Positions 17,168-38,371 are shown, numbered from the stretch's first letter. The stretch: 64,000 nt of DNA from a virus (IMGVR_UViG_3300008116_000011:64001-128000), one strand, 5' to 3'. The notes: generated from the sequence alone by a model not told the origin. Translations and numbers: made by a program.

Positions 17168-17171
17168 ATTA

Positions 17172-17203
17172 TAAAGGTAATAAGATTTATTAGTTTATCC
17201 AAA
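17172..17203 (-). promoter_or_regulatory. Bacteroidota-type promoter
   Basis: TTTG-N20-TACCTTTA. Confidence 0.65.
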
Positions 17204-19777
17204 TTTAAAGAATTTATTTATGGTATTGTTGAATATTGGTTTTCCCCATTTCAAATCCTCATATAGTGTTTCTAGTTTATTCTTTAACATTGAATCAAAT
17301 AATTGCACTTTGTCTAGGTATTTTTCAATGAATTCAGTAATAAATGGAGGATCATCATAACCGTTAAATCCAATTACGTCAATTCGATATGGATTATCTT
17401 TTAAATATGCTATAAACATTTTATCTCCAATCTGAAATGTATTGTGTTTTTTATCTAGTTTTTTAAATCGAAGTAAATCATTATAGTAAATAGCTGCTTT
17501 AGTATTGATAGGACATTTTAATTCCAATTTAGAGAATATTTCACCTGGTTGAGGTTTTGAAGCAATATATTCGCCTATGTTTTTTAATCCAGTAGGTTTA
17601 AGCAATAAACGCCAATCTACTGTGTTGATACTTTCTCTAAATGTAATAATCTGTTTGTCTATTTCTGGTTTAGGTTTACCAAACATAATGTCTTGAATTA
17701 GACCCTTTGCAAATTTTCTAAAGTAAGGAGCAAAGTTAGATTTCATCAAATCTAATCCTTTAATATCTAATTCCTCTACAGGCACACCTTCTTTATTTAC
17801 AATAAATTGAGCGTAACGTCTTTTACCTGCAAAGTATCCTCGTTCAAGTACAACCTCTTGCTTTAATTCAAAGTAATGAGGACGATCATGTAAATTAAAT
17901 AATTCTACTACTAATGTATTTAGATTTTCGTTTGCTACTTTTTGTATTTCAGTAGCAATTTCTAAAACATACTTTACAGCTTCTTCTCTATTATTAAGAT
18001 TTACATCAGGATATCTTTTTCGGATTAGATCCTTTACTTGGATAAATAACGAATCAGTATCTGATGTTACAATATAATCAATACCCTCAGTTTCCATTTG
18101 TTCATTCATCCATCTATTTACATATTTAATAGATTCCTGAGTTAAACGTTGCCCTGTAAGTGTAATTGCTTTTGAAACGAATTTATGTCCATCTGTATAG
18201 CGCCATCCATTAATAGCATAGCAACCATAAACGTCATTCAATTTAATTTTATATGCGTGTTGTCTACGATTATAGAATTCACCTTTAACAGCATCACCTG
18301 ACTTATATGCTTTTTTCATCAGGTTTTTATATTCAACACGTTTATTAAACCAGTCAGTTAATACATCACATACTATACTTGATCTGTCTTTTCGAAATAT
18401 AACACCAGGAGCAGATATAATCCAATTTTCCTGTTCAATTAATTTAATTATTTTTTCTACAGTTACAATTGAGCGTGAAATACTTTTATTTGGATTTATT
18501 CGCTCAATAGTAATTTCAGTATTTGGGTTTAATAATTTTAATTCTTTTAAAGACCATTGATTATCATATTTGTCTTTATTTACTATTCGTCCTATTAAAG
18601 TTTCAATCCCCATATTTAAGGAACGAATAATAGACGGATATAATGATGTAAAATCTAAATCAATAACCCACTCATATAATCCTGGTACTGGGTCTTTTAG
18701 GTATCCGCCAGCATATTCCTCTTTAATGTCTTTTAAATTAGGATTATAAGTTGTTGGTTTATTAGGTGAAATTACATTTTTACGTTTTAGATAAGTTAAA
18801 ATAGCGCCTTCATTTAATGTTGTAGACATATAAATTTGCTCATAAGGCACATGACACAGGTGGCAAATAATTACTGTTAGATCAATAAATTTAAGTTTAT
18901 CTTCAAGTGCAACTATAATTTCAACGTCTCTAATATTGTAATCAATAAACTTATTTATATCTTCTTTAAATAATTTATCTAATGAACCTAAATAATCTAC
19001 TTTGCCTAAATCAACATATTTTTCTCCAATATTACCTAAGGCATAAGATGGTTCTTGAGCTGTGATGTATTTTTTAAACAGCAACATATAGTCAAGGTGG
19101 TTTACACCTGCTATAGTAGTATATTTTTCTCCAGCAAATTCACCTTCATCTACTTGTTTTAATGGAGATAAACGTACAGCTTGGCTTTCACCTATTACTT
19201 TAGCAATACGATGATATAAGTAAGGAATATCAAAGAACTCACTATTCCACCCAGTTATAATTGTTGGATCTAATTCTTCCCATTTATCAAGGAACTTATA
19301 CATTAATTCCTTTTCTGTAAGGCAAGGTATTACTGTTTTATTTTCACTTGTAGATTCACTCATTGCCTTTGCTTCATCTAGAATGTAACAATAATACATT
19401 TTAGTACTATTGTCGTATAAAGCAATTGCTGTTAATTTACCTGCAGGGTCACGAACACTATCTTGGGTAAGCGCTCCTGCAATTTCACACTCAATATCTA
19501 GATAGACAATGTTTTGATATTCAGGTGTGTCGTCTTGTTCATAATAGGCATCTACTAATACACGAGTAAATTTATCAACATCACTTTCATAAGCATTAGA
19601 ATCTTTCCAATCATATTGTTTAGTTGGAGATACTTTAACGCCCTCTAATGTTTCATATTCACCTTTTTCATTTGCAACGTAGCAGGTAGCTCGATATGGA
19701 AATTCGAGCCACCCCTTTTTATCGTCACGTAGATGATATGTCTTTGTACTTCTGTTGTAATAAATTGCTTGATACAT
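17195..19777 (-). CDS. family B DNA polymerase (gp43-like)
   Basis: Exonuclease DIE, WNSEFFD, YNIRD; polymerase DFTSLYPS, K...N..YG, DTDS, KRRYA. Confidence 0.97.
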   Translation of the reverse strand: MYQAIYYNRSTKTYHLRDDKKGWLEFPYRATCYVANEKGEYETLEGVKVSPTKQYDWKDSNAYESDVDKFTRVLVDAYYEQDDTPEYQNIVYLDIECEIAGALTQDSVRDPAGKLTAIALYDNSTKMYYCYILDEAKAMSESTSENKTVIPCLTEKELMYKFLDKWEELDPTIITGWNSEFFDIPYLYHRIAKVIGESQAVRLSPLKQVDEGEFAGEKYTTIAGVNHLDYMLLFKKYITAQEPSYALGNIGEKYVDLGKVDYLGSLDKLFKEDINKFIDYNIRDVEIIVALEDKLKFIDLTVIICHLCHVPYEQIYMSTTLNEGAILTYLKRKNVISPNKPTTYNPNLKDIKEEYAGGYLKDPVPGLYEWVIDLDFTSLYPSIIRSLNMGIETLIGRIVNKDKYDNQWSLKELKLLNPNTEITIERINPNKSISRSIVTVEKIIKLIEQENWIISAPGVIFRKDRSSIVCDVLTDWFNKRVEYKNLMKKAYKSGDAVKGEFYNRRQHAYKIKLNDVYGCYAINGWRYTDGHKFVSKAITLTGQRLTQESIKYVNRWMNEQMETEGIDYIVTSDTDSLFIQVKDLIRKRYPDVNLNNREEAVKYVLEIATEIQKVANENLNTLVVELFNLHDRPHYFELKQEVVLERGYFAGKRRYAQFIVNKEGVPVEELDIKGLDLMKSNFAPYFRKFAKGLIQDIMFGKPKPEIDKQIITFRESINTVDWRLLLKPTGLKNIGEYIASKPQPGEIFSKLELKCPINTKAAIYYNDLLRFKKLDKKHNTFQIGDKMFIAYLKDNPYRIDVIGFNGYDDPPFITEFIEKYLDKVQLFDSMLKNKLETLYEDLKWGKPIFNNTINKFFKFG

Positions 19778-19803
19778 AACCTTTTAAATATACTAGGGTT
19801 TCT

Positions 19804-22218
19804 TTAATTTTCACGCCTTTCTTCTGGTTTATAGTAAATAATTCTATTATGCCAAACAGGTGCTGCTAATAATATAGCTGGTTTGATATGACCTCTCATT
19901 GTTTCTTGAAATATATAGGACATCCAGGTTTGTTCAAATGGATTTGCCCATTCTGTTTCTAGGAACATTTTATAATTACCTTTTTTATTTGCAATCATAG
20001 GCCAGTTAGCATAATAAATGTCACCAGTAGCATAAGATACTTCATTATGAACTTCAATTCTATCAAATTTAGTTCTGGGAGCATATGGGTCTAATCCTGA
20101 TACTGGTAATTGGTCATAGTCAGGCCATATATAACTTCTAACAGCTTGAGGAACATTATACCAAGATACTTGAATATTATTATCCATGTATACTTCTGTA
20201 TATGATAATTTAAGGAAATCAAATTCTTCCTTAGCCATTATTTCATGAACTTTGTCATATAGGTTAGGAACATATTTTCTAAATCCATTTCTACAGAAAC
20301 CAGTTTCAGTTGAAGGATATAACCCCATATCATCTTCAAAGAAGAAATAATAATCACTATCTGATTCATTGAAATGTTTTGCAGCAAATAGTCTTCCACC
20401 ATTAATTCCTTTGTTTTCATTCATAATGATGTGTTCAAAACCGTATTTGTCTGCTACTTCTTTATTAGTAATTCTAGCTTGTTCGTCTGTTGAGTTATCA
20501 ATTAGAATTTTTTTATGCGGTCTACTTAACCAATCAGGTGAATTTGCTTGCCATGTAGCTAAAGTATGTTCAATTTGTTGAGGAAAATTAAACGTTAACA
20601 TATATAGAGATGTTTTATCTGTATCTCTATTGTATAATCCTTTAGGCAAAACATGAGAGCGAGTACCATTATTTTCTAATTGTACTTGATCATCTAATAA
20701 TGCTTGTACAAATTTAACTACTAAACCATTATCATCTAAAGCATAACGTCTATAGATGTGAGGTTCTAAATGAGCCATAATACTAAAGATACTCTCTTCA
20801 GTGCCCATATATCCTGAATTTAGTGTATCTTGAAGTAAATTATAGTAGGTACCATTTGCTTGACTTAAAAAGTCTTTATGTCCACCAAATAATCCACCTC
20901 TACAAACATAAGTTACTTTTTCACGAGCATATCTGTTAATTGCTTTAAAGTCAAATCCATGAATTTCATCTGCGGCTTCATAGGGGTAACTTAGGAATAG
21001 GAATGTTTTTAGATACGGAATTATTTTATCTAGGCATCTATGCTCAGTAAAATATTTTTCATATACAGTATTTGTAATACCAGCATCAAGCCATAAGAAA
21101 TAATTAGTATCAAATACATTCATTACTTTAGCATCATGCAACATAAACATTTTTGATTGCACAATTGGGTTATACCACTCAAGTGATGCTTGAGGACTAC
21201 CAGGAAGCCATCCATGAGGACCTGTTTGATTCAACCAGTCAGGATTAGTTCTTATTTCTTGAGTTTTATCCCAAAATGGTTGATAGAAATTATTTTTAAT
21301 ACTTTCTAGTTCAAATGTTCTAACATAAGTGTTTTCAGGTTTACGTTTTTTCCATACTAGATATTCATATTCTTTAGGAATATAAATAAACATTTTAACT
21401 GGTATGTCTAGGAATTTATCAAAATTTTCAATGTAGTGGCTAAAATCTCTACCTGGGCGTCCTATGTTCCATAGCCCTGTTACTAGAGTTAAATCTTCAG
21501 TTAAATGTACTTCGGGAGTATTTTCAGATATTTTTACTTGTTCTCTTAGTTTATCTAGTTCATAAAATGCTAATCCTTTTCTAGTTCCTCCTTCATAATT
21601 GTCTACAATTGATTTTTCTTCAATATAAAGTTCAGGTTTAGGAAAATTAAAAGGTTCTGAATGTAGGCAGACAGGATAAAAAGCAGCTGCTCCTCTTTCC
21701 CAGTTTGCATCTACAGTTACAGTATTATCAGCATTAATATGTTTTTGAGAATAATTTTCATCGTTTAAATCATACCAAGTAGTAGTTAGAAGATATTTAC
21801 ATTTTGATTTTAAAATGTTATTTATTGCTTTACGTCCATCTTCTAAACTAAGATGTCCTAACACATCTCTTACAATCAATAAGTCAGCTTCAGGAATTTC
21901 AATATTGTCTTGAGTTAAATCAATTTCTTGAAATTTAATTATTGAATTAGCATACTTTTGGTTGTCTTGGATTAATTCAGGGACAATATCACATCCTGTG
22001 TAGCTTTCAAAACTATACACTATATCTTTCATCCAGTTAAAGTCACCACAAGGAATATCAACTACGGATTTAATCTCTTTGTCTTTAACTAATTGCTTAA
22101 TTTGTTGTCTAATAACTTCAGTTTCATCCATTGTGCTTCCAGGGCCACTTTTACTTTCAGGCCAACCTCCAAATCTCCAGTTTGTGTAAACATCTTGAAA
22201 AACCTCTTTTAAACTCAT
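19804..22218 (-). CDS. three-domain fusion: SAM methyltransferase + HtrL/YibB-like + GT2-like
   Basis: N-terminal SGPGS, DIPCGDFNW, RDVLGH; middle TLVTGLWNIGR, WLDAG, GGLFGG, GTEES; C-terminal IDNS, FFEDD. Confidence 0.7.
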   Translation of the reverse strand: MSLKEVFQDVYTNWRFGGWPESKSGPGSTMDETEVIRQQIKQLVKDKEIKSVVDIPCGDFNWMKDIVYSFESYTGCDIVPELIQDNQKYANSIIKFQEIDLTQDNIEIPEADLLIVRDVLGHLSLEDGRKAINNILKSKCKYLLTTTWYDLNDENYSQKHINADNTVTVDANWERGAAAFYPVCLHSEPFNFPKPELYIEEKSIVDNYEGGTRKGLAFYELDKLREQVKISENTPEVHLTEDLTLVTGLWNIGRPGRDFSHYIENFDKFLDIPVKMFIYIPKEYEYLVWKKRKPENTYVRTFELESIKNNFYQPFWDKTQEIRTNPDWLNQTGPHGWLPGSPQASLEWYNPIVQSKMFMLHDAKVMNVFDTNYFLWLDAGITNTVYEKYFTEHRCLDKIIPYLKTFLFLSYPYEAADEIHGFDFKAINRYAREKVTYVCRGGLFGGHKDFLSQANGTYYNLLQDTLNSGYMGTEESIFSIMAHLEPHIYRRYALDDNGLVVKFVQALLDDQVQLENNGTRSHVLPKGLYNRDTDKTSLYMLTFNFPQQIEHTLATWQANSPDWLSRPHKKILIDNSTDEQARITNKEVADKYGFEHIIMNENKGINGGRLFAAKHFNESDSDYYFFFEDDMGLYPSTETGFCRNGFRKYVPNLYDKVHEIMAKEEFDFLKLSYTEVYMDNNIQVSWYNVPQAVRSYIWPDYDQLPVSGLDPYAPRTKFDRIEVHNEVSYATGDIYYANWPMIANKKGNYKMFLETEWANPFEQTWMSYIFQETMRGHIKPAILLAAPVWHNRIIYYKPEERREN

Positions 22219-23846
22219 AAATTTATGTTTTTTCTAATATAATATTTTTCTGTTATTAATCCATCCATTTGGGAATTTTCAAATACATATAAAGCATCTT
22301 TTAACGTTGTAAGAATAGGCATTCCATTAACATTAAATGATGTATTTAGTATAACACCAATTCCTGTCTTTTCTTCAAATTTAGTTATAAGATCATATAA
22401 CCATTTATTTTGTTCTCTTGTTACTGTTTGAACACGAGCGGTATTATCAACGTGTGTAATAGCTGCTAATTTTTCTCTCCATTCTTCACGTACAACGGGA
22501 GCATAAGACATCCACCTTGCATCTCGATCCCACTCAAAGTATTTATTTACATCTTCTAAACGCACAACAGGAGCAAATGGTCTATACCATTCTCTATGTT
22601 TAACTTTTTGGTTTAAAATATCTTTCATTTCTGGAAATGATGGGTTGCAGATAATACTTCTGTTTCCTAGTGCTCTAGGTCCGTGCTCAGAATTTCCTCT
22701 TACTATTCCTATAATTTTACCTTCAGCTAGTTCATCAATAACCAAATTCATATCTAGATCATCTTTCCACCATGATTGATTATTAAAATAATAATGAAGC
22801 ATATCTTTGTCTAATACAGGCAAACCAGCATATGTTACATCTATTGGTTCTTCTGGTTTGATAAAAGCAGCTAATAAGCCTACAGCTATACCACAGTCAT
22901 TAGGGTTAGGTCCTACGAATACTTCTTTATTAAATTCATTTACTAATCTAGTATTTAACAGAATGTTCAAACCACATCCTCCAGTTATACAAATTGGAAG
23001 ATCAGGAAATAATTCAAAATATGGTAATGCTATTTCTAAAAAGCATTCTTCAAATGCTCTTTGTGAAGTAGTAGCTATATCCCATGCTACTTGTCCTTCC
23101 AATCTGTTATTAAAATCAAATGTAACTCCTATTTTTTCACCTAACACATCTATTTTGGCTTGATAGTTAGTTCCATTAGGATCACTTTTGTAAAAATCTA
23201 TAAAATCATTTAACCATTCCTCTCTTACATTACCATAAGAAACAAGTCCCATTATCTTACCAGAGTAAACTAAATTTCCTTCACTTAAAGGTTCAAACTT
23301 TATATCATTAAGATAATGTCCAAACAACATATAGGGAAATCCTAAATCATATTCTATCCAATGTTGCCCCATAGTAGGATTTGCTAGTCTTTCTAGCAAT
23401 GCAGGTTCTTTACCTCGCACACAATGATAAATGTTAAATTTACCATCATCTCCTCCTCCATCAAATGAAAATACTATTGCTTCCTTGTACGGTGATTGAT
23501 AAAAAGTACCAGCAGCATGAGCTTGATGGTGATGATAATCATAGTAATTATCAGCTTTTATAGCATGTGGGGTGTGTAATAACTGGTTATCTATTACTAG
23601 ATCAGTATTGATGGCAATGCAATTTTCAAATTTATCAATATTATATTCTTTTTTGATAAGATCAACTGCATCTCTAATTAGTCCTTTAAGGTCATTATAT
23701 CCCTTATGTTTAGGTACTTTATATTGAGCTACACCTGCATTTTTATACCCTATATATCTTTCAATTTCAACAACACATACTATTTTGCCGTCTTTTTCAA
23801 CAGCTAAAGCTGCATTGTGTGATCCATAATATCCTATATTAGCCAT
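22215..23846 (-). CDS. carbamoyltransferase (NodU/CmcH/TobZ family)
   Basis: SHNAA, HHQAHA, DGGGD, GKIMGL, GGCGLN, GPRALGNRS, RPFAP, HVDNTARVQT, NTSFN. Confidence 0.95.
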   Translation of the reverse strand: MANIGYYGSHNAALAVEKDGKIVCVVEIERYIGYKNAGVAQYKVPKHKGYNDLKGLIRDAVDLIKKEYNIDKFENCIAINTDLVIDNQLLHTPHAIKADNYYDYHHHQAHAAGTFYQSPYKEAIVFSFDGGGDDGKFNIYHCVRGKEPALLERLANPTMGQHWIEYDLGFPYMLFGHYLNDIKFEPLSEGNLVYSGKIMGLVSYGNVREEWLNDFIDFYKSDPNGTNYQAKIDVLGEKIGVTFDFNNRLEGQVAWDIATTSQRAFEECFLEIALPYFELFPDLPICITGGCGLNILLNTRLVNEFNKEVFVGPNPNDCGIAVGLLAAFIKPEEPIDVTYAGLPVLDKDMLHYYFNNQSWWKDDLDMNLVIDELAEGKIIGIVRGNSEHGPRALGNRSIICNPSFPEMKDILNQKVKHREWYRPFAPVVRLEDVNKYFEWDRDARWMSYAPVVREEWREKLAAITHVDNTARVQTVTREQNKWLYDLITKFEEKTGIGVILNTSFNVNGMPILTTLKDALYVFENSQMDGLITEKYYIRKNINL

Positions 23847-23855
23847 TATATTTAA

Positions 23856-24911
23856 TTAATAGGGTTCAGTATGAGGCCAAGCATTATGTTGATCCATCAT
23901 ATCTTTTATTTCTTTATTTTTCTCCATAAAATCCTCTAAACTAGTCCCTACAGCAAAATTTCCACCAAATCCAGGAATAGAAGGAGGCATAAAATATCTA
24001 TCTTCGAAATGTATTTGTCTGTTATATACAGTGTTAGGGAAATTTAATACTTCTATTTTATGAAAAATATTAGTAGTTGCTACTGGCATATAGTCACATA
24101 ACATATAGCCACCGCATTGTTGGCATGCTTTTAAGAAATGTTCTCCATAAAATATGTTAATACATTCATTCCATATATCAAAGTAATCTTTAACCTTTTC
24201 CGGACTTTCAAAATGATAGTATCTGAATGGTCCCTCAGTTATAGGAAGTTGAGTTATAAATGGATCACCAAATATATTTTTTTGTTTAAATAATTTATTA
24301 AGAACTATTGAGCATGCTTGTAAACCTACTAAAGAACCTGTTGATCCCATAGCCATAGACCATCTTAATCTGTATGAACCTGTTGGAGAATCAAAAGAAA
24401 GAGGATCAATTCCTAAAGTTTCTTTAACACATCCCTTCATTGAATTAATAGGAGTATTAAATTCCTCCCAAAATTCTTCTTCAGTCATAGTTCCATCTAC
24501 TATTTTATCGTATCTGATTTTTACATCACCATCCATAAACACAATTTTCTTATATCCTAATTGTGATATAGTTGGAAATGAAAATCTATGAGCCGAATAA
24601 GAGAAAAAATGACCTCTGCTCATAGCTTCTTTATATTCATTCCCATAAGCATCAGGGTCAATAGCATTTGATGGAATAAATTCTAAATCTTCAGACCATG
24701 GATATGGTTTTCTAGCTTCATGAACATTTATAATGGCTTTAACTTTCCCAGTCTGTTCAGCAAATTCTAAAAAATCTTCAGGATAATCCGTTAAAATAAC
24801 ATAATCCATCATGTTATCATAACCCATAGACATTGCATCTAAAATATTAAGTTTAACGCGTCTACGGTAAGAAGGACCAAATCCCCAAAGTGAAATAATC
24901 GGTTTTTCCAT
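23856..24911 (-). CDS. putative GT-A glycosyltransferase
   Basis: ILTD, VFMDGD (DxD); cluster context. Confidence 0.45.
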   Translation of the reverse strand: MEKPIISLWGFGPSYRRRVKLNILDAMSMGYDNMMDYVILTDYPEDFLEFAEQTGKVKAIINVHEARKPYPWSEDLEFIPSNAIDPDAYGNEYKEAMSRGHFFSYSAHRFSFPTISQLGYKKIVFMDGDVKIRYDKIVDGTMTEEEFWEEFNTPINSMKGCVKETLGIDPLSFDSPTGSYRLRWSMAMGSTGSLVGLQACSIVLNKLFKQKNIFGDPFITQLPITEGPFRYYHFESPEKVKDYFDIWNECINIFYGEHFLKACQQCGGYMLCDYMPVATTNIFHKIEVLNFPNTVYNRQIHFEDRYFMPPSIPGFGGNFAVGTSLEDFMEKNKEIKDMMDQHNAWPHTEPY

Positions 24912-24914
24912 AAC

Positions 24915-25859
24915 TTATTTTAAAAGTTCTAAATCAAAAACATCAAAAAACGACTCTACAATTTTATCCAATAATAAATATTGTTGATAATATTCTACGT
25001 TATTTCTAGATATAGAAGTTAATAATTCTTCGTTATTAATAGCATCTTCAACTGCTTTTATATAATTAGCAGCTGACTGTTCAAAAGGTATTCCTGGAAA
25101 TACTAGACTGGCATTTATAGAGGCTTCATTTCCTTTTATGTAATTTGTCCCAGGAATTAGTTCTTTATAAAAAGGAGTTTTTAATTCTGCTCTTACAAGA
25201 GGAATTCCTAACCCCATTGCTTCTACATCTCTTAAACACCATTCTCCATTACCATTAAGTGAAAGAGCAAGAGCATATTGACTTAATACTTCATAATATT
25301 TTTCTCCTCGAATGTTGTGTTCATGTCCAAATACATCAAATAAAGGGTGTTGTTCTAGTATATCTGTTATTTGTTTTCTTGAATCATATATCCATCCTAT
25401 AAAACATGCCTTTTTAATTTTTTCATTGTAATTATAAGGTATTCTATATTTTTCTATAAGATCATAGGAACGTAAAAATTCTAAAGCATATAAGAACGGA
25501 CTAAACTTAATTCCTGTTCTTTGTAATATTGCTTCAGGGGATTCATAAATACCTAACCCACCTATAAGGTGAACAATATTAAGTGAATCCCATTCAAGAT
25601 GGCCTGTTGTTATATCCATTGCTCTATCCCAAAAACTAAGAACAGTTGCCTTTTTATTATCCGGGTTAATAATTTTTAAACTAGCTATTCCACATCTACC
25701 CCCTGGTGATTGGCAACCAGGGTAAACATCATACACACTTATTTTAGATTTTGTTACTTCAGGATAATGTTTGTCAATATTATTATACACACTATTAAAT
25801 ACATATCCAAATCCTTGATTTCCACCTCCATCAAAAGAGTACTCAAATATTAAATTCAT
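24915..25859 (-). CDS. putative GT-B (exostosin/GT90-like) glycosyltransferase
   Basis: F.G...R, LSLNGNG..C.RDVEAMGLG.P. Confidence 0.55.
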   Translation of the reverse strand: MNLIFEYSFDGGGNQGFGYVFNSVYNNIDKHYPEVTKSKISVYDVYPGCQSPGGRCGIASLKIINPDNKKATVLSFWDRAMDITTGHLEWDSLNIVHLIGGLGIYESPEAILQRTGIKFSPFLYALEFLRSYDLIEKYRIPYNYNEKIKKACFIGWIYDSRKQITDILEQHPLFDVFGHEHNIRGEKYYEVLSQYALALSLNGNGEWCLRDVEAMGLGIPLVRAELKTPFYKELIPGTNYIKGNEASINASLVFPGIPFEQSAANYIKAVEDAINNEELLTSISRNNVEYYQQYLLLDKIVESFFDVFDLELLK

Positions 25860-27154
25860 CTAATTATTTTATAATTATAATCAATGTTACCTTCAATTCG
25901 CTCAGCCCAATCTTTAGATCTGCTGTGTGCCCAAATTACCCAACGTGATGGTACTTTGTCTGTAAGGAAGAATTTTTCTTCCCTATACCAATCTCCAGGT
26001 GATGATAGTATATTTCTTATTTGGTATTCATTATAATCTTCTCTCCACATTTCTTTTCCATCTTCATCATCAAAGGCACAAACCCAAAAATCATAATCAT
26101 TTTCTTTAAAATTAGATTTATTAAATTCAACTAAATGGTAGAAAGAAAACATAAATGAATCTTCCCATTCTTGTTCATTTTCAATTATAGGATTTGGAGG
26201 ATAATTATTTTCATAAGTATAACGCTGTACTGAGCGTTTTTTAAAATGAATACCAGCATATTTTTCATAGTCACGGAGTGTACGTTCAGTTCCTAAATCA
26301 TATCCTGTAAGATCAAATCCATTGTCTTCAGTACGTAATAATTGTCTAATTTTAGAGCGAGCAATATTTTGTTGTGTCCACCAATCTTCACCACGTTTGT
26401 GTTGGTCATCCCAAACTAAAATACCATCACGTTCAGTTCTCATAGTAGCATGCCAAATTACAAGTTTATGAGGATGAAACATATCATATCCATGAGTATA
26501 AGAACGTACTGTTAAATTAAGTTCTTCACCACTAAAGTAAATATCTTGGTCATGTAGTATTGTTTTAGCCCAATGCCCATCAGCAAAGCAGAAATGACCT
26601 GATAAAAATCTTGATGGTGGTGGTTCAGTCATATCTTGCCATCCATGTAACAGTGAAGGACGAATAAAGATAGTACCATGTGGATAAAAACAAGCAAATG
26701 TTTGTTGCCAAGGTTCCATTGTCCTGTCAGCAGGATCATTAAACGGATTATAATAGGGTAGATAAGCGGCTAATATTGGTTTTTTAATACCTTTATCTTT
26801 AAGTTGATCATGCATCTCAATTAATGTAACATCCCAACCCTCAGCAAATCTATGATGTGAATCAAGTTGACAAATATACTCTTCATCTCTTAACATTGTG
26901 TTAATTTGATAACGAGCATAAGGTAAACCTTTAGCTTCAGTGTGCGGAATATCCATTATTCTAAAACGAGGATCATCTCTAAATTCATCTACGTTATCAA
27001 ATCCATCTTCAGGATTAAATTGCCTACAAATACCAAATACTAATCTATCAGGATAAGTAGCATTTTCTAATGCCGATTTAATTGTAGGGACTAATTCTGG
27101 TTCTCTATAGGCAGGTAGATGGATAAAGATTTTTCTTAAATGTGCTTTTTTCAT
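25856..27154 (-). CDS. Skp1-hydroxyproline GlcNAc-transferase-like (GT60) protein, paralog 2
   Basis: IF..LPAYREPEL, QLDSHHRF, SGHF.F, F.GEE, YTHGYD.FHP. Confidence 0.8.
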   Translation of the reverse strand: MKKAHLRKIFIHLPAYREPELVPTIKSALENATYPDRLVFGICRQFNPEDGFDNVDEFRDDPRFRIMDIPHTEAKGLPYARYQINTMLRDEEYICQLDSHHRFAEGWDVTLIEMHDQLKDKGIKKPILAAYLPYYNPFNDPADRTMEPWQQTFACFYPHGTIFIRPSLLHGWQDMTEPPPSRFLSGHFCFADGHWAKTILHDQDIYFSGEELNLTVRSYTHGYDMFHPHKLVIWHATMRTERDGILVWDDQHKRGEDWWTQQNIARSKIRQLLRTEDNGFDLTGYDLGTERTLRDYEKYAGIHFKKRSVQRYTYENNYPPNPIIENEQEWEDSFMFSFYHLVEFNKSNFKENDYDFWVCAFDDEDGKEMWREDYNEYQIRNILSSPGDWYREEKFFLTDKVPSRWVIWAHSRSKDWAERIEGNIDYNYKIIR

Positions 27155-28434
27155 TATCTAGGTATTTCTTGTTCAATAATTTTGTGATTCCATTCTTTTG
27201 ATTTACTATGTGGCCATAATAACCAACTTACAGGTGCTTCTTCACATTCAAACTCTCTCCAAATATGGTAAAATTGATCTGTTGAATCAGACATTTTAAA
27301 ATTTCTAATTTCATTTTCATTAACATCTGCTCTAATCATTTCATTACCATTTTTATCTTTAAAAGCAACTACCCAACAATCATAATCATCATCAGTTAAC
27401 GCTCCTTTCCATACATCTATACAATATTTAAATTTCTTTACAAAATTTTTATTCCATTGTTCTTCACTTTCAAATGGTACTGGGAGTAATTTTTGGTCTA
27501 AAGTATGTCTTTGTATTCGTTTTCCTTTAAAATCAACTCCAATATAACGCTCAAATTCAGCTAATGAACGTTCTTTACCTAAATCAAACCCAACAAAATC
27601 AAGTCCTTCTCTACTTTCATCATCTATTCCAAATAATGCTCTATATTTTCTAAATGAAAATTTATCTAAAGGAGAAAATTGATGATCATCCCAATGACGT
27701 GTTTTTCCATTTCTAGTATATTCATGCCATATTACTGGAAAATGGGGATGGAATAGGTCATATCCATGAGTGTATGCTCTAGCAGATATTGATGTTTCTT
27801 CTCCATGAAAATAAAGATCAGGATCATGTGGAACATCATGTACAAATGATCCTAAAGTAAATCCAAAATGTCCTGAATAAAATCTTGCAGGGATAGGTTC
27901 GGTATATTTTTGCCAGTTATCAACATGAGAAGGAACAATAAATATAGGACCTTCAGGCATAAATCTATCATAATTAGTATGCCATACCTCTATATTACGC
28001 CCAGCAGGGTCATTATTTGGAAAGTATCCAGGTAAATATGCAGTTAATAGTGGTTTTTTATAGCCTTTCTTTTGAAGATTTTTTAGCATGTTAATTAAAC
28101 TTTCATCCCAATCTTTAGTAAATCGATGATGAGAGTCTAATTGTAATGTGTATGTTTCTCCATTATAATATCTTTGTAATCTATTTCTAGCCCAACAAAC
28201 ACCTTTAGCATCTTTGTAATGAATATCTATAATTTTAAAACGAGGATCACCCAAATATTCATCTAAATGATCCCATTTATCTTCCTCAGCATGTTGCCAG
28301 GCAATGCATATCCTTAAATTTTCAGGCCACTTTGCATTATCAAGCATGTCCTTAATTGTAGGACGTAATTCAGGATCGCGATAAGAAGCAATTTGTACGA
28401 ATATTGTTTCTTCTAGTTGTTTCTTTTTTGGCAT
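27154..28434 (-). CDS. Skp1-hydroxyproline GlcNAc-transferase-like (GT60) protein, paralog 1
   Basis: IFVQIASYRDPEL, GVCWAR, QLDSHHRF, DP.LYFHGEE, YTHGYD. Confidence 0.85.
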   Translation of the reverse strand: MPKKKQLEETIFVQIASYRDPELRPTIKDMLDNAKWPENLRICIAWQHAEEDKWDHLDEYLGDPRFKIIDIHYKDAKGVCWARNRLQRYYNGETYTLQLDSHHRFTKDWDESLINMLKNLQKKGYKKPLLTAYLPGYFPNNDPAGRNIEVWHTNYDRFMPEGPIFIVPSHVDNWQKYTEPIPARFYSGHFGFTLGSFVHDVPHDPDLYFHGEETSISARAYTHGYDLFHPHFPVIWHEYTRNGKTRHWDDHQFSPLDKFSFRKYRALFGIDDESREGLDFVGFDLGKERSLAEFERYIGVDFKGKRIQRHTLDQKLLPVPFESEEQWNKNFVKKFKYCIDVWKGALTDDDYDCWVVAFKDKNGNEMIRADVNENEIRNFKMSDSTDQFYHIWREFECEEAPVSWLLWPHSKSKEWNHKIIEQEIPR

Positions 28435-28472
28435 AACAGATTATATAACAATTTATTTGCTATACATATATA

Positions 28473-29012
28473 TTAGAGTGAATTTCTTTGCTTATCATTT
28501 TGCCACTGTCCATTATACATTACATCAGTATTGTTTGATGGGTGGAAATAAATTTGTGCTACACGAGCATCTTTTTCAATGAATATTGTTTCATGAACAT
28601 AAAGCAAAGTACCCATATTATCTGTTTCAAATCCAGGATCAAATACAGGGCTATTGATTATAGCTCCATTTCTGTACAGAGATGAACGTTGCTTAATGAA
28701 TGCAGTACGATTTGATGGAATTTTACATCCCTCCCAAAACGTAATATCATATACACCTTTATAAAGTAACCATCCTTCAGCACCATCTAAATTGATAGTA
28801 TCAACAGGAGTATAAGTAGTTAATTCAGTTTTGTCCTTAAGTACTTTACCTATTTTACCATCTTTAGTTACGTTGTAAGGGTTATTTGCTATGCTAGTAC
28901 CTACTTTCTGTACGGCTTTAAGTGATAAATCATAACCAACTTGTGCTGGTTTTCCTTTAGTGTGCTCTAATTTGAGCAATCCTTCGTCTATAATTTGTTG
29001 TGAATTTAACAT
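28473..29012 (-). CDS. trimeric dUTPase / dCTP deaminase
   Basis: GYDL, RSSL.R.G, FDPGF, RVAQ, YNGQWQ. Confidence 0.8.
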   Translation of the reverse strand: MLNSQQIIDEGLLKLEHTKGKPAQVGYDLSLKAVQKVGTSIANNPYNVTKDGKIGKVLKDKTELTTYTPVDTINLDGAEGWLLYKGVYDITFWEGCKIPSNRTAFIKQRSSLYRNGAIINSPVFDPGFETDNMGTLLYVHETIFIEKDARVAQIYFHPSNNTDVMYNGQWQNDKQRNSL

Positions 29013-29024
29013 AATATAAAGTTA

Positions 29025-29186
29025 TTAAAGTTCTTCTAATATTCCAAGTATTTCTGCTAGTACAAATCCTAATCCTGCGAATTCAAAATCTTGATACATA
29101 ATACCAACACCAGCTATAATTCTAATAACTGATTTGGCTATACTAAACCAGAAATGACTTTTTGATTTACTTTCCTTTGGTTGCAT
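29025..29186 (-). CDS. 53-aa small membrane protein
   Basis: Not in the track. MQPKESKSKSHFWFSIAKSVIRIIAGVGIMYQDFEFAGLGFVLAEILGILEEL fills the gap between PRTase and dUTPase. Confidence 0.65.
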   Translation of the reverse strand: MQPKESKSKSHFWFSIAKSVIRIIAGVGIMYQDFEFAGLGFVLAEILGILEEL

Positions 29187-29580
29187 AGTCTGCTATTGTT
29201 TGTGAATCTTTTTGTTCCCATGGATAAACTATCCATTCATTTTCAGAAGCTAACTTCCACCAAAAATGAGGTTCATATTCTGATGCTGTTTTATAATGAA
29301 GAGTAGCTGTGTAGACATTATCTTCAAATTTAAAACGTTTTAATGTTTTACCTGAGTCGCAAATGTCATCTACAATTAGGATGTTGCTTGTTATTCCTTT
29401 AATGTTAGCTTGAGACACAAAAGGGATATTTAACTTATGAGACAATATAACTGCTGGAATTAATCCTCCACGAGGTAAACCTCCAATAGCTGCTATCTCA
29501 TATTTGCTGTTGGTGATGTTAATGGCTAGTCTTTCAACAGCATCATCAATATCACTCCATGATATAAAACGTTTATCCAT
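29167..29580 (-). CDS. purine phosphoribosyltransferase (Gpt-like)
   Basis: RGGLIP, LIVDDICDSGKT PRPP loop, WIVYPWE. Confidence 0.9.
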   Translation of the reverse strand: MDKRFISWSDIDDAVERLAINITNSKYEIAAIGGLPRGGLIPAVILSHKLNIPFVSQANIKGITSNILIVDDICDSGKTLKRFKFEDNVYTATLHYKTASEYEPHFWWKLASENEWIVYPWEQKDSQTIADYATKGK

Positions 29581-30308
29581 TATCTATAACCTTCCATTCC
29601 TAATTTAAGCATTTCAAGTACCTCAGCTTTAGCTGTTCTAGTATGATCAGCAAATACACCTGATACCTCACTTGTAACCATTGATGCTCCAAAATGTTTT
29701 ACTCCTCTACAACTAACACAGTTGTGGAATGAATGTACTACTACCATTACACCAATGTTATCTTCACAAATAGTATCTACAGCATTGTGTATTGCAACTG
29801 TAAGTTGTTCTTGAATAGCACCTCTACGAGCAAAATGCTCTACAATACGATTTAATTTACTTAAACCTACTACTTTACCATCTTTACCAGGTACATAAGC
29901 AACGTGTGCTTTACCTAAAATTGCTTGGTGGTGGTGAGAACACATTGATACAATTGGAATATCTCTTTCAAGTACAATACCTGTGTAACCATCAGAAGGG
30001 AATGCTGTGATGTCTGTAGGTAACTCATAACGACCTTTCCATAGGTCATTAACGTATGCTTTAGCTACACGGCGAGGTGTTTCCATACTATTTGGATCAT
30101 TTCTCCAATCAACACCCAATGCATCTAAAAATTCACCGTATGCTTTTTCAGCTTGATCAATTATTGCTGTTTTCTCATCTGAATTCAGTGAACGATGATT
30201 ACCAGCATCAATTAATGATTTTAATTGAAGTGACATTCCGTTTGCAAAGCCGGGTTGTGCTGTTTCTAAAGATTCAACTTGTGTAACTTTTCGTCTTTTA
30301 TTTTCCAT
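29580..30308 (-). CDS. folE: GTP cyclohydrolase I
   Basis: ETPRRVAK, CSHH, GLSKLNR, QEQLT, HNCVSCRG. Confidence 0.95.
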   Translation of the reverse strand: MENKRRKVTQVESLETAQPGFANGMSLQLKSLIDAGNHRSLNSDEKTAIIDQAEKAYGEFLDALGVDWRNDPNSMETPRRVAKAYVNDLWKGRYELPTDITAFPSDGYTGIVLERDIPIVSMCSHHHQAILGKAHVAYVPGKDGKVVGLSKLNRIVEHFARRGAIQEQLTVAIHNAVDTICEDNIGVMVVVHSFHNCVSCRGVKHFGASMVTSEVSGVFADHTRTAKAEVLEMLKLGMEGYR

Positions 30309-30328: not shown

Positions 30329-30359
30329 TAAATATACGACCAAATATTTGGTTTTCAAA
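30329..30359 (-). promoter_or_regulatory. Bacteroidota-type promoter for the folE-PRTase-GT block
   Basis: TTTG-N19-TATATTTA. Confidence 0.7.
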
Positions 30360-35260: not shown

Positions 35261-35956
35261 TTATTTTTTAATATATGCTGTAGGGCACATATAATTTAGT
35301 GTTTTTATTTCTAGATTTTTTTCTTGAATAAATTTATCTACACCTTTAGATTCACTCCAACTGTGATATCCATACTCATCAAACACTATTATTCCTCCTT
35401 TTGTAACATTATCCCACATATTACTTAAAGCATCATAAGTAGGCTCAGCAATATCTAAATCCATATACAATAGAGATATTTTAAATCCAGGATATTCAGA
35501 TACAAACTTTTTACTTGTAAGTGAAATATCTCCTTCTACTAAAAGAAAATCTGAGGTACTGAATCCATCTTGTAAGAGTTTATTTTGGAATTGTTCTTTA
35601 AAGGATGAATCATGGTTAAAACTTCTTCCTTCAAATAAAGTATTCATTGTTTCTTTATCTGTTGAATTTTGAATAGAAGAAAGTAAACCATCAGTATTAA
35701 AGAAATCAAACCCAATAACTTTTTTAGCTGAATTAGGGTTGTATATATTTTTTAGTTTAAGAAATGTATACATTCCTGTTCCTTTAAATACTCCACACTC
35801 TACTATATCTCCAGGAATATCTTTAACCTCATTATATAGTAATGTTCTAGCAACTAATTTATTAAAAACCCTTCTATCATTACTTAAAATAAAATTATTA
35901 AAGTTATCAAATAGACTTTGAGGATTTTGTGTTAATTCTATCTTATTTAAATCCAT
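35261..35956 (-). CDS. TylF/MycF-family sugar O-methyltransferase
   Basis: GDIVECGVFKG, GFDFF, YMDLD..EPT, GGIIVFDEY. Confidence 0.85.
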   Translation of the reverse strand: MDLNKIELTQNPQSLFDNFNNFILSNDRRVFNKLVARTLLYNEVKDIPGDIVECGVFKGTGMYTFLKLKNIYNPNSAKKVIGFDFFNTDGLLSSIQNSTDKETMNTLFEGRSFNHDSSFKEQFQNKLLQDGFSTSDFLLVEGDISLTSKKFVSEYPGFKISLLYMDLDIAEPTYDALSNMWDNVTKGGIIVFDEYGYHSWSESKGVDKFIQEKNLEIKTLNYMCPTAYIKK

Positions 35957-37326: not shown

Positions 37327-38147
37327 ATAAAAAGACTTTTATCAAACCCAATATACTTATTATATTCGGGATTATTAAGTAAATTATTTTCTTTAATAAG
37401 TTGTTTTACAAATGTATCCCCATGAGTTCCTGTTAGAGTTTCATGGCCATTCAAATCCATTAAAAATGCACCATGGCGTATTATTTCTTTATACCCTATA
37501 ATAAAATATTCTGCAGGGTATGCTAAATCATAGATATAGTATTTAGTGCATATTATTTTATAGTGATTCTTATTAGCTATTTCTGAGCAATCTAGTTCAT
37601 GAGGATTTATATCAGGGTTGTCTTGTAATAATTGTGTTAGTGATGATTTTTTCCATATACATGGTTGGATACTAAAAGCATGCCTGTAATTAGGATCCAT
37701 GTGGTGGAATATATTATTTTCAAATCCGTATTTGCTATAATCGATATTAAATAAAGGTCTATTATATTGATTAGCGTATGATGAAGCAAATGAGAATAAA
37801 TCTATGTTTTCATCATTCATTAATTTAACAAGATTATTTAGCCCTGTTATATCTATAGGATCTGTTAGAATATAGTCTTCGCAAAAATAGAATATATAAT
37901 CTTCTTTAATTTGAGGAAGTACATTGTTTAATGTTTTTGAGAAATGACCCCCAATAGAATCAAATTCTACATCCCCTGCTAAGTATTTTACTCTATCTAA
38001 ATATGGTAGATCGAATATTGTAAATTTGTTAGCTACAACATATATTGGTAAATTAAAATTTGGATTATGTTTAAAAAAATAATCTAAAAATAATCGTAGT
38101 ATGGGCAAATTAGTTTCATTAGTATAAACTACTATAGCTAAATTCAT
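37320..38147 (-). CDS. putative GT-A glycosyltransferase
   Basis: YIFYFCEDY, QPCIWKK; context. Confidence 0.45.
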   Translation of the reverse strand: MNLAIVVYTNETNLPILRLFLDYFFKHNPNFNLPIYVVANKFTIFDLPYLDRVKYLAGDVEFDSIGGHFSKTLNNVLPQIKEDYIFYFCEDYILTDPIDITGLNNLVKLMNDENIDLFSFASSYANQYNRPLFNIDYSKYGFENNIFHHMDPNYRHAFSIQPCIWKKSSLTQLLQDNPDINPHELDCSEIANKNHYKIICTKYYIYDLAYPAEYFIIGYKEIIRHGAFLMDLNGHETLTGTHGDTFVKQLIKENNLLNNPEYNKYIGFDKSLFIW

Positions 38148-38371
38148 AAAACATCTTTATCAAATATAACTATTATTTCTCCTGGGTTATGTGCAGGGAT
38201 ATTATATTCAAAGTTATATTTAGTCAAAACTTCACTTACTATTTTCTTCATAAATTCAGAATATCCAGTAATTATTCTTAAAGGTAGTTGTTTTGAATTA
38301 AGTAATACAAAATTTTCTACCACACCCCATACTTGATGATGATATAAACCATGTAAATCTAATTCTTTCAT
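38144..38371 (-). CDS. stand-alone Smr-domain protein
   Basis: LDLHG, IITG, NPG. Confidence 0.75.
   Translation of the reverse strand: MKELDLHGLYHHQVWGVVENFVLLNSKQLPLRIITGYSEFMKKIVSEVLTKYNFEYNIPAHNPGEIIVIFDKDVL

Follow-up and report, generated by a model that had tools for sequence, protein, structure and literature searches.

What is made by a tightly packed run of transferase genes that ends at a DNA polymerase gene? We considered this question for positions 17195–30308 of a 64,000-nucleotide stretch of viral DNA (the window). An earlier note on this DNA had read the run as a single system that builds a carbamoylated and methylated glycan, either on DNA or on virion or host-surface molecules. 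ORF and profile searches bear out its gene order, tight packing and domain calls: the 11 genes are where it had placed them, all on the minus strand (like every window gene described below), with intergenic gaps of −20 to +38 nt. As it had also said, there is no convincing terminator inside the run. A sigma-70-like site (TTGAAA-16-TATATT, 30358–30331) is indeed present where a promoter was proposed (30329–30359), but shuffled sequences have such sites at least as often (92.8 expected versus 89 found), and it is therefore given no weight. Not one system but two make up the block, as unrelated modules that adjoin each other ahead of the polymerase gene.

The first module begins with folE, encoding GTP cyclohydrolase I (29580..30308; PF01227, 150 bits; TIGR00063), and a small XPRT/HGPRT-like phosphoribosyltransferase, or PRTase (29167..29580; PF00156, NF006613). 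These two genes belong to a DpdA3-type 7-deazaguanine DNA-modification system and not to the glycan-building set, contrary to the idea of a single folE-to-PolB system. The remaining que/dpdA3 genes are 8–13 kb upstream of them (38–43 kb of the window). They encode a QueE-like radical-SAM enzyme (38371..39261; phrog_2076, E 3e-37; QueE TIGRfams matched weakly), QueC (40506..41333; PF06508, 135 bits), a homologue of DpdA3-type DNA guanine transglycosylases (41377..42168) and a member of the QueD/6-pyruvoyl-tetrahydropterin synthase family (42911..43372; PF01242, 58 bits). The DpdA3 homologue was missed by PF01702 and recognized by tblastn and BLASTP. It matches a gene annotated as "DNA guanine transglycosylase" in the cultured Flavobacterium phage immuto_2-6A (tblastn, 99% coverage, E 5e-34; BLASTP, 33% identity over the full length, E 3e-43), and also the Campylobacter CP220 group (tblastn). 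The DpdA3 class was defined previously (PMC10516641), and immuto_2-6A is a DpdA3 phage in whose DNA fdPreQ1 has been measured.

The PRTase is 49% identical (E 7e-44) to that of immuto_2-6A, which also adjoins FolE, and the two genes are adjacent in 10–14 related loci. FolE would catalyze the first step of the 7-deazaguanine pathway, and the PRTase probably salvages the guanine excised by DpdA3, returning it via GMP to GTP for FolE. The window shares with known DpdA3-type systems FolE, QueD, QueE, QueC, a DpdA3 homologue and a PRTase next to FolE. Unlike those systems, the window has its genes split into two groups 8–13 kb apart, and it lacks a DpdN-like formyltransferase neighbor and QueF, the latter being absent from the whole genome. 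In immuto_2-6A, the order QueD-QueE-PRT-FolE-DpdA is followed by the polymerase and GroEL, and neither GT60 nor two-GT-A-domain homologues (see below) were found in this phage. Since its que cluster runs to the polymerase without them, the glycan genes of the window look inserted between que-associated genes and PolB.

Two smaller genes follow the PRTase. A hydrophobic ORF of 53 aa (29025..29186) has no family match and a highest Kyte-Doolittle 19-residue mean of 1.59; tblastn matches it in eight related loci. The other encodes an enzyme of the dUTPase/dCTP-deaminase superfamily (28473..29012; PF22769, PF00692) that is PRK02253-like (81.7 bits, under that model's cut-off). Because it occurs in only 9 of the 79 related loci, it is not a component of the glycan set, and it is probably also part of the nucleotide-metabolism module.

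The second module (19804–28434) is a self-contained glycan cassette, which is soluble, cytoplasmic and laterally mobile. Transmembrane segments were predicted for none of its enzymes. It starts with GT60a (27154..28434; PF11397, 238 bits; phrog_24687, 490 bits), which resembles initiating polypeptide-HexNAc-transferases, and its tandem paralogue GT60b (25856..27154; PF11397, 181 bits). A D-S-H motif, which binds the metal in mucin-type polypeptide HexNAc-transferases, is invariant in 118 members of the GT60 family, and GT60b retains it together with every other column that is at least 90% conserved.

The next two genes had been guessed to encode GT-B and GT-A enzymes, and structure comparisons agree. 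The 314-aa protein (24915..25859) has no match in Pfam or PHROG, an Atlas feature score of 0.97 and a TM-score of 0.66–0.71 to the Glyco_trans_1_2/GT1, CgeB, GT90 and RXYLT1_C clusters, and is GT-B-like. The 351-aa protein (23856..24911), for which Pfam gives no match, has an AlphaFold model (pLDDT 81.7, pTM 0.83) that in Foldseek retrieves GT-A enzymes only, including CmsA/Ktr4, B3GalT5, XXYLT1 and LgtC (E 1e-5 to 1e-3); D127-G-D129 is invariant.

A NodU/TobZ-type O-carbamoyltransferase follows (22215..23846; PF02543 and PF16861; phrog_1601, 412 bits). Its matches in the PDB are 7xb6, NovN, TobZ and GdmN (E 1e-49 to 1e-42), and it probably caps a sugar hydroxyl. The last cassette gene encodes an 804-aa fusion (19804..22218; phrog_3382, PF09612, TIGR02192) of a SAM methyltransferase (residues ~20–203), an HtrL_YibB GT-A domain (~240–520) and a second GT-A domain (~535–804). 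The model of residues 240–804 (pLDDT 90.5) has two Rossmann-like domains, and its top Foldseek matches are Mimivirus R699, LH3, K4CP, LARGE1, COLGALT1 and PmHS2 (E 4e-11 to 1e-6). W-x-D and E-D-D motifs are invariant in the two-GT-A-domain enzyme, the latter in the C-terminal domain. For this middle part of the block, the earlier description of a glycan-building set with a NodU-type carbamoyltransferase and a methyltransferase holds. The T4 gp43-like family B polymerase (PolB; 17195..19777; PF00136, PF03104), whose best cultured relative is in Microcystis phage Mel-JY01 (35% identity), is a neighbor of the cassette and not a member.

The boundaries of the cassette are clear from comparison of the 79 related viral loci. 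Residues 240–804 of the fusion, which mark the 3′ boundary, occur in all 79, and GT60a, which marks the 5′ boundary, in 73. The layout of a GT60 5′ end, a variable middle and a two-GT-A-domain 3′ end is kept in these 73 loci at 45–88% identity. Within it, the carbamoyltransferase is present in 35–36 of the 79 loci, the GT-B-like gene in 28–29 and the 351-aa GT-A gene in only 5, and the methyltransferase is fused to the two-GT-A-domain enzyme in only some. The repertoire of middle genes across loci includes GT2, GT10 fucosyltransferase, GDP-mannose 4,6-dehydratase, FkbM and CmcI O-methyltransferases, and the carbamoyltransferase. Cultured examples are few, with GT60 in only 4 of 50,697 cultured phage records. 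XacN1 and Xoo-sp13 have the order GT60, carbamoyltransferase, two ORFs and two-GT-A-domain homologue, and Stenotrophomonas phages CM1 and RAS14 have homologues of both end genes. According to the earlier note, a variable island unlinked to que and pol genes, together with DNA that has only simple deazaguanine, would speak against its reading. The cassette is unlinked from que, as QueC is absent from the complete cassette-bearing genomes G002, G005, XacN1 and Xoo-sp13, but it adjoins PolB in two or more lineages that have diverged greatly; in others it adjoins primase or RNR.

Three further genes of the window are associated with the cassette. A TylF-like sugar O-methyltransferase (35261..35956; PF05711, E 2e-11) is likely an accessory of the glycan pathway. 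A protein that joins a HAD phosphatase/mutase to a sugar-1-phosphate nucleotidyltransferase (35956..37326; PF13419 and PF00483) probably supplies an NDP-sugar; a 66% identical homologue sits within the cassette of locus L064. Locus comparison also revealed a 275-aa protein that travels with the cassette (37320..38147). It has no match in Pfam, PHROG, NCBIfam or cultured phages, and its homologues are cassette genes in L019 and L064, and in L034 the homologue follows the cassette immediately.

Candidate acceptors are found outside the window, where the same genome encodes three Thr/Ser/Pro-rich repeat proteins of 219, 2350 and 1730 aa (genome positions 11931–12590, 13255–20307 and 130079–135271). 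Their combined content is ~1300 Thr and 555 Ser. One of them, the 1730-aa protein, has a C-terminal PF21722 domain and matches to tail-fibre PHROGs, and its gene has the tail sheath gene on one side and an S74-chaperone fibre gene on the other. Based on this position and the C-terminal homology, the repeat proteins may be located in the virion.

We looked in the flanks of the 79 loci for proteins in which Ser, Thr and Pro make up 60% or more of a stretch of 40 aa or longer. Such a protein is present in 42, and none is in the fetched flank of the other 37. In 27–29 loci the repeat gene is the immediate neighbor of the cassette, and in sister loci L028–L030 two repeat ORFs lie between the cassette and PolB. 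The cassette-adjoining proteins represent at least 13 families that do not cluster together. In a permutation test, direct adjacency was observed 27 times versus 13.2 ± 2.8 expected (19 versus 10.1 ± 2.4 after dereplication), so the enrichment is approximately two-fold and not absolute. In the lineage of the window, the repeat genes are 60–70 kb away from the cassette, and the evidence for a link therefore comes from co-occurrence and from other lineages. A codon pattern for T-P-[ST]-x-T-x-T-P occurs in 318, 17 and 103 copies in three complete cassette-bearing genomes and is found in neither immuto_2-6A nor Mel-JY01, two relatives that lack the cassette; the sample is small, with three positives and two negatives. 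Conversely, when 80 viral loci were picked by a repeat DNA pattern alone, GT60, the two-GT-A-domain gene or both turned up in 7.

Given these observations, it is reasonably likely that the cassette performs cytoplasmic mucin-type O-glycosylation of the phage's own giant fibre proteins, with carbamoyl and methyl caps. We infer that GT60a and GT60b would attach the initial HexNAc to Ser/Thr residues in the repeat proteins and that the GT-B and GT-A enzymes would then extend the chain. The terminal two-GT-A-domain enzyme may add two further sugars or polymerize a disaccharide, and the O-carbamoyltransferase and fused methyltransferase would cap sugar hydroxyls. The three proteins encoded at 35–38 kb would assist the pathway as a whole. 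The outcome would be virion fibres with a mucin-like sugar coat, which the swapping of middle enzymes could vary from strain to strain. Of the targets listed in the earlier note, the evidence favors virion molecules. The location of the cassette in a replication/nucleotide module (PolB, primase or RNR) in several lineages counts against a fibre target. The T4 gene for DNA beta-glucosyltransferase has a comparable position.

It is unlikely that the cassette glycosylates other proteins (capsid, tail-tube or host), in the manner of mycobacteriophage virion glycosylation or an effector-type takeover, with the Thr/Pro-repeat genes as mere passengers of hypervariable regions. The GT60 and LH3/COLGALT-like folds do suggest protein acceptors generally, the 37 loci without a nearby repeat gene fit this explanation, and XacN1 has glycoproteins, yet the giant protein neighboring its cassette has only a ~30-aa PT linker. 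Against it count adjacency that recurs across at least 13 unrelated protein families, genome-level co-occurrence in three of three cassette-bearing and neither of two cassette-less genomes, and the recovery of GT60 by a search that starts from the repeats. Moreover, the known acceptors of protist GT60 enzymes are Thr-rich mucins and a hydroxyproline.

Modification of DNA, the lead reading of the earlier note, is very unlikely. Under this explanation, the carbamoylated and methylated glycan is built on a 7-deazaguanine derivative or a hydroxymethyl-pyrimidine and blocks host nucleases. The setting is suggestive: the cassette lies among nucleotide-metabolism and replication genes, adjoins PolB in the lineage of the window and in a second, very diverged one (where PolB is cluster c11), and is within 10 kb of que genes in two lineages. 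In T4, beta-gt is two genes away from gene 43. A NodU-type enzyme is, furthermore, a proven 5hmC carbamoyltransferase (PMC8670742). T4-type DNA glucosylation and 5hmC carbamoylation share with the window sugar and carbamoyl transferases near polymerase or nucleotide-metabolism genes, but their defining partner, a ThyA-like dCMP hydroxymethylase, is missing from this genome. TET/JBP was also not detected, a weak negative because the TET control search itself matched nowhere. Since a ThyA-type hydroxymethylase and QueF are absent and TET/JBP was not detected, neither a hydroxyl nor an amine is predicted on the bases. In the study of 5hmC carbamoylation, the DNA-active carbamoyltransferases co-occur with ThyA homologues, and glycosyltransferase-flanked ones sat on contigs without cytosine modification (PMC8670742). 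The four QueC-less genomes have the cassette, and immuto_2-6A has fdPreQ1 in its DNA without it. The DNA of cassette-bearing XacN1 is cut by BssHII, NaeI and SpeI (PMC5852040). Finally, the GT60 family is protein-directed, and the presence of a fucosyltransferase, a GDP-mannose dehydratase and as many as eight transferases points to an oligosaccharide that exceeds any known DNA glycan.

It is highly improbable that the product is neither protein nor DNA, with the cassette remodeling a polysaccharide of the host envelope or, during infection, making a free glycoside or a molecule like a natural product. In favor of this, HtrL/YibB takes its name from an E. coli gene in the LPS-core region, the carbamoyltransferases of known structure that come nearest act on small molecules (tobramycin, novobiocin, geldanamycin) and capsule polymerases K4CP and PmHS2 have the two-GT-A-domain architecture. 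Against it, Pfam and PHROG revealed neither an undecaprenyl-phosphate transferase nor a flippase, a polymerase or a membrane protein of the Gtr type, every enzyme is predicted to be soluble, a lytic T4-like genome has little to gain by seroconversion and the linkage to repeat-protein genes would stay unexplained.

O-glycosylation of fibre proteins has several partial precedents. CAZy family GT60 includes protist polypeptide alpha-GlcNAc-transferases, namely the Trypanosoma cruzi mucin pp-alpha-GlcNAcT and Gnt1 of Dictyostelium and Toxoplasma, which acts on Skp1. Membership in PF11397, the D-S-H motif and solubility are shared with the window enzymes, and this genome also encodes Thr/Pro-rich candidate acceptors. 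By contrast, the window enzymes are phage-encoded, are predicted to act in the bacterial cytoplasm and are tandem paralogues that head a multi-enzyme cassette. In its model, the two-GT-A-domain enzyme is a tandem of GT-A domains that both have a conserved acidic motif, and it most resembles Mimivirus R699 of the giant-virus glycosylation machinery, the human collagen and dystroglycan glycan enzymes (LH3/COLGALT1, LARGE1) and the capsule polymerases K4CP and PmHS2. Sequence identity is ~10%, and TM-scores are low (0.23–0.29) because the orientation of the domains differs.

Mycobacteriophages reportedly glycosylate their virions, as Freeman et al. are said to have described in Cell Host Microbe in 2023. 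There too, enzymes encoded by the phage are proposed, or have been shown, to glycosylate Ser/Thr-rich tracts in its structural proteins. However, those glycans are on short C-terminal tails of capsid or tail-tube subunits, and the glycosyltransferase genes adjoin the genes for these subunits. In the present genome, the glycans would go onto giant repeat proteins that offer hundreds of sites, a GT60 would start the chain and the cassette is in a replication module.

A related system in a cultured phage is ORF330–334 of the Xanthomonas jumbo phage XacN1, with counterparts in Xoo-sp13 and Stenotrophomonas phages CM1 and RAS14. It differs from the window in having a single GT60, a larger carbamoyltransferase fusion, no methyltransferase fusion and no que genes. 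At least two virion glycoproteins were detected in XacN1, and its authors proposed the phage's own glycosyltransferases, including ORF334, as their source (PMC5852040). We found that ORF334 is a GT60 homologue. The similarity to the window extends to GT60 (41–43% identity), to the two-GT-A-domain enzyme (37–39%) and to the carbamoyltransferase located between them.

The parent viral record, of which the window is bases 64001-128000, is a complete genome of 174,437 bp with direct terminal repeats. The window has a G+C content of ~30%, and almost all of its genes are on the minus strand. Every gene that the earlier note had listed for the run from folE to PolB was found in its place, and the spacing between neighboring genes ranges from -20 to +38 nt. 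The domain calls also held: FolE, an XPRT-like phosphoribosyltransferase (PRTase), a 53-aa hydrophobic ORF, a DCD/dUTPase-superfamily protein, two GT60 proteins, a NodU/TobZ carbamoyltransferase and PolB. The GT60 proteins score 238 and 181 bits with PF11397 (cut-off 21), and theirs are the only PF11397 genes in the genome. Two guesses for proteins without a Pfam match agree with what was found, as the 314-aa protein is GT-B-like and the 351-aa protein yields a confident GT-A model with an invariant D-G-D. The 804-aa protein (19804-22218, minus strand) is a methyltransferase fused to an HtrL_YibB domain and one further domain. PolB (17195-19777) resembles T4 gp43, and its nearest relative in culture, from Microcystis phage Mel-JY01, is just 35% identical. 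Megablast of the cassette against cultured phages gave no match. A sigma-70-like site is present at 30358-30331, where a promoter had been proposed, but such sites are not more frequent than in shuffled sequence, so the site carries no weight. As previously claimed, no convincing terminator was seen within the run, although the scan is uninformative, with site counts equal to those in shuffles.

The run had been regarded as one unit. Using the 804-aa protein, we retrieved 79 related viral loci for a comparison of genes; what is conserved among them is instead a cassette (19804-28434 in the window, minus strand) that opens with a single GT60 gene or two and closes with the part of the fusion containing two GT-A domains (residues 240-804, the terminal enzyme). 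This arrangement occurs in 73 of the 79 loci, with 45-88% identity. The genes between these fixed ends are variable: the GT-B gene occurs in about 29 loci, the carbamoyltransferase in about 35 and the 351-aa GT-A in 5. Depending on the strain, the middle can elsewhere contain a GT2, a GT10 fucosyltransferase, a GDP-mannose 4,6-dehydratase, or FkbM- or CmcI-type O-methyltransferases. It differs even among close relatives of the window, whose PolB proteins are 81-90% identical, and the methyltransferase is fused to the terminal enzyme in some loci only.

The surroundings of the cassette vary as well. The folE, PRTase and dUTPase-like genes are beside it only in the window's lineage and one sister lineage (9-17 loci). 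In other lineages, its neighbors are a very diverged PolB (protein cluster c11), a SegE-type endonuclease and a primase, RNR and que genes, or none of these. From these differing contexts only, we infer that the cassette is laterally mobile. In about 14 loci (L020, L033, L035, L036, L040, L047 and others), a gene for a SegE-type GIY-YIG homing endonuclease is located directly 3' of the terminal cassette gene, e.g., at 2381-2863 in L035. This endonuclease is a possible vehicle for transfer of the cassette between phage genomes. The complete 183-kb relative G002 (L086-L095) encodes a GroEL that is 51% identical to that of the window, and the window's PolB has no tblastn match in it at E below 1e-6.

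The relationship of the cassette to folE is clarified by Flavobacterium phage immuto_2-6A, whose gene order is QueD-QueE-...-PRTase-FolE-...-DpdA-...-polymerase-GroES-GroEL. Its PRTase is 49% identical to the window's, and neither a GT60 nor a two-GT-A-domain homologue was found in this phage. Because of this gene order, the PRTase identity and the lack of the cassette, folE (29580-30308) and the PRTase gene (29167-29580) are, to judge from the comparison, members of a deazaguanine module and not of the cassette, which looks like an insertion between this module and the polymerase. The small PRTase-FolE gene pair is common to the window (29167-30308, minus strand) and immuto_2-6A (L112 31931-33107). 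The earlier interpretation is supported in part: the run encodes a carbamoylating and methylating glycan pathway, but this pathway does not form one system with folE.

The rest of the deazaguanine module, all on the minus strand, consists of genes for a QueE-like protein (38371-39261), QueC (40506-41333), a 263-aa homologue of DpdA3-type DNA guanine transglycosylases (41377-42168) and QueD (42911-43372). A PF01702 (TGT) search of the genome found no transglycosylase, but the absence that this result suggested is ruled out, since the model missed the DpdA3 homologue, which matches genes of immuto_2-6A and of the Campylobacter CP220 group in tblastn and BLASTP. We also rejected a ThyX identity for this ORF, as the PDB sequence search gave only noise, with a weak ThyX match (E 0.45). 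FolE, QueD, QueE, QueC and a DpdA-family transglycosylase homologue, the components by which a DpdA3-type system is recognized, are thus together in one genome. Complete guanine replacement was reported for the DpdA3 subfamily (PMC10516641). The identification of such a system in this uncultured T4-like phage predicts that guanine is completely replaced by a preQ0-, ADG- or CDG-type base. The PRTase might salvage guanine excised by DpdA3 and return it to GTP for the pathway, a role of which we found no description in the DpdA3 paper. One phage lineage encodes, inside the queC...queD cluster and apart from the cassette copy, a second NodU-type carbamoyltransferase that is diverged (17391-19121 in both L039 and L067, 16126-17775 in L042 and 17927-19588 in L034). 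This copy could be directed at the base.

Evidence on the target of the cassette comes from its other neighbors. In some lineages, the cassette is flanked by large proteins (clusters c23 and c47) that were considered as diverged polymerases, but BLASTP showed no similarity and the proteins instead consist of long Thr/Ser/Pro tandem repeats. A repeat protein (Ser/Thr/Pro content of 60% or more across a stretch of 40 residues or longer) is encoded within the flank in 42 of the 79 loci. In 27-29 loci, the repeat gene immediately adjoins the first GT60 gene or that of the terminal enzyme, mostly with under 250 bp between them, and the adjacent proteins fall into at least 13 protein clusters, among which there is no grouping. 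If the repeat genes present were placed at random, 13.2 +/- 2.8 direct adjacencies would be expected, and 27 were observed; after dereplication, 10.1 +/- 2.4 would be expected, and 19 were observed. In the sister loci L028-L030, the cassette and PolB are separated by two repeat ORFs. In G002, four repeat genes are arranged in tandem at 119.8-127.1 kb, distant from the cassette.

The window's own genome encodes three repeat proteins, all outside the window, which together contain about 1300 Thr and 555 Ser. The largest has 2350 aa (genome 13255-20307, L084 2256-9308, minus strand), about 1900 of which are repeat residues; its repeat tracts alternate with small domains of ~60-100 aa that contain Cys and match no family. 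A 219-aa protein is encoded at genome positions 11931-12590. The third (1730 aa, genome 130079-135271, L085 2079-7271, minus strand) has its repeat in residues 41-1180 and a C-terminus that matches PF21722 and tail-fibre PHROGs, and its gene is located between that of the tail sheath and that of a 1424-aa fibre with an S74 chaperone. With 38-40% G+C, the giant Thr/Pro-repeat genes exceed the 30% of the genome, and they encode the same peptide repeat by varied codons.

We searched for the repeat as a codon pattern, T-P-[ST]-x-T-x-T-P. Three complete genomes with the cassette contain it 318, 17 and 103 times, nearly always on one strand, versus at most one match per genome for the reversed pattern that served as a control, and it is absent from the cassette-less relatives immuto_2-6A and Mel-JY01. 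In the reverse direction, 7 of 80 viral loci picked solely by the repeat DNA pattern have a GT60 gene and/or the terminal enzyme within a few kb, and GT60 occurs in only 4 of 50,697 cultured phage records. The most likely target of the cassette, and in our assessment a reasonably probable one, is the phage's own mucin-like fibre proteins and not DNA.

The enzymes are consistent with such a target. GT60 enzymes are polypeptide alpha-GlcNAc-transferases that start mucin-type chains in protists. A D-S-H motif is invariant or nearly so in 118 phage GT60 sequences, including both window paralogues, and presumably corresponds to the metal-binding D-x-H motif of the GT27/GT60 lineage, which includes the related mucin-type GalNAc-transferases. 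A sequence search with GT60a, one of these paralogues, found no match in the PDB. Both are predicted to transfer alpha-GlcNAc from UDP-GlcNAc to Thr, Ser or Hyp of a protein, with indirect support from their linkage to Thr/Pro-repeat genes. The carbamoyltransferase has both PF02543 and PF16861 (Carbam_trans_N and Carbam_trans_C) and matches TobZ, NovN and GdmN with E-values of 1e-49 to 1e-42; on these matches, it is a regular TobZ/NovN-type O-carbamoyltransferase. The model of the terminal enzyme (pLDDT 90.5) has two Rossmann-like GT-A domains, each with one acidic motif, W137-x-D139 and E389-D390-D391, that is invariant in 39 sequences. The structures most similar to this model are those of Mimivirus R699, human LH3 and COLGALT1, LARGE1, K4CP and PmHS2 (Foldseek, E 4e-11 to 1e-6).

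Some genes elsewhere in the window could belong to the same pathway. A TylF-like O-methyltransferase, a HAD-nucleotidyltransferase fusion and a 275-aa protein, encoded at 35-38 kb, probably serve it, because in L019, L034 and L064 homologues are located within the cassette or right next to it. For the 275-aa ORF, neither the libraries searched nor the cultured phages gave a match. A 353-aa protein without a family match (33574-34635, minus strand) has its gene directly upstream of the first GT60 in the sister loci L022 and L028-L030, and may be a further accessory. Apart from these candidates, the window encodes a 199-aa protein (31561-32160, minus strand) with a weak GH19 (chitinase/lysozyme-like) match, which is in the same place in eight related loci and is probably an endolysin.

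The glycan might alternatively be attached to the host envelope or to DNA. The cassette enzymes all lack hydrophobic segments, and family searches of the block revealed no membrane-bound initiating transferase, flippase, polymerase or Gtr protein. This fits direct glycosylation of proteins in the cytoplasm before assembly, and argues against envelope remodelling. DNA hypermodification, which the earlier note had allowed, now appears very improbable. Its sole remaining support is position, as PolB, primase or RNR adjoins the cassette in several lineages, like beta-gt and gene 43 in T4. However, QueC is lacking in four complete or near-complete genomes with the cassette, namely G002 (183 kb), G005 (297 kb), XacN1 and Xoo-sp13. 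A ThyA-like hydroxymethylase is also absent, as PF00303 had no match in the complete 174-kb genome and matched in control genomes. Genome searches for QueF and Tet_JBP were negative, although the TET/JBP result is weak because the TET control matched nowhere. Therefore, the genome is not predicted to provide a base that has a free hydroxyl or amine, and the route to a hydroxyl-bearing base through a hydroxymethylase or (with the same weakness) TET/JBP, as expected for T4-type DNA glycosylation, was not found.

By contrast, in the phage 5hmC carbamoyltransferase system, the sole proven DNA carbamoyltransferase family, co-occurring ThyA-like dCMP hydroxymethylases supply the 5-hydroxymethyl acceptor, and carbamoyltransferases flanked by glycosyltransferases are on contigs without cytosine modification (PMC8670742). 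In addition, XacN1 DNA was mapped with BssHII, NaeI and SpeI (PMC5852040) and so is cleavable, which counts against a DNA target, and the gene content implies an oligosaccharide far bigger than any known DNA glycan. Glycosyl- and carbamoyltransferases beside a polymerase and que genes are thus not in themselves evidence of DNA hypermodification, and a tempting mis-annotation is avoided.

A tentative and rather unlikely extension of the reading on fibre proteins is that this T4-like phage builds a genuine mucin- or proteoglycan-like coat. In that case, about 1850 Ser/Thr sites of the three giant fibre proteins would be primed by the GT60 enzymes, the two-GT-A-domain enzyme would polymerise a repeating disaccharide in the manner of LARGE1 or K4CP, and carbamoyl and methyl groups would cap the chains. 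The resulting glycocalyx on the virion would vary between strains and govern adsorption, stickiness or escape from grazers and defences.

The cassette is also present in culture. The Xanthomonas jumbo phages XacN1 and Xoo-sp13 share the order GT60 - carbamoyltransferase - two ORFs - two-GT-A-domain enzyme, and the Stenotrophomonas phages CM1 and RAS14 have both conserved end genes. At least two virion glycoproteins were detected in XacN1, and their source was suggested to be phage glycosyltransferases, with ORF334 named (PMC5852040). We found that ORF334 is a GT60 homologue; the link of the glycoproteins to the cassette or to particular acceptors is our proposal only. Because the cassette occurs in cultured XacN1, Xoo-sp13, RAS14 and CM1 and glycoproteins were seen in XacN1, the idea is directly testable. 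If it is true, many abundant aquatic phages and some plant-pathogen jumbo phages bear a portable cassette for decorating giant Thr/Pro-repeat fibres, in which the initiating and terminal enzymes are fixed and the middle can be swapped. The adsorption, aggregation, environmental persistence and antigenicity of these phages would then hinge on a layer overlooked in genome annotation.

To our knowledge, glycosylation of phage particles is experimentally documented in very few systems. Virus-encoded virion glycosylation as such is known, but in the literature we found no description of GT60-initiated glycosylation of Thr/Pro-repeat proteins or of mucin-type glycosylation in phages, so the action of GT60 on such proteins has apparently not been described before. 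Among the proteins that share the fold of the terminal enzyme, LH3 and COLGALT1 act in collagen glycosylation and LARGE1 in that of dystroglycan with matriglycan, whereas K4CP and PmHS2 are capsule polymerases. Mucin-type O-glycosylation is viewed as a trait of eukaryotes. If the proposed coat exists, it would be the bacterial-virus counterpart of eukaryotic mucins, made wholly in the bacterial cytoplasm.
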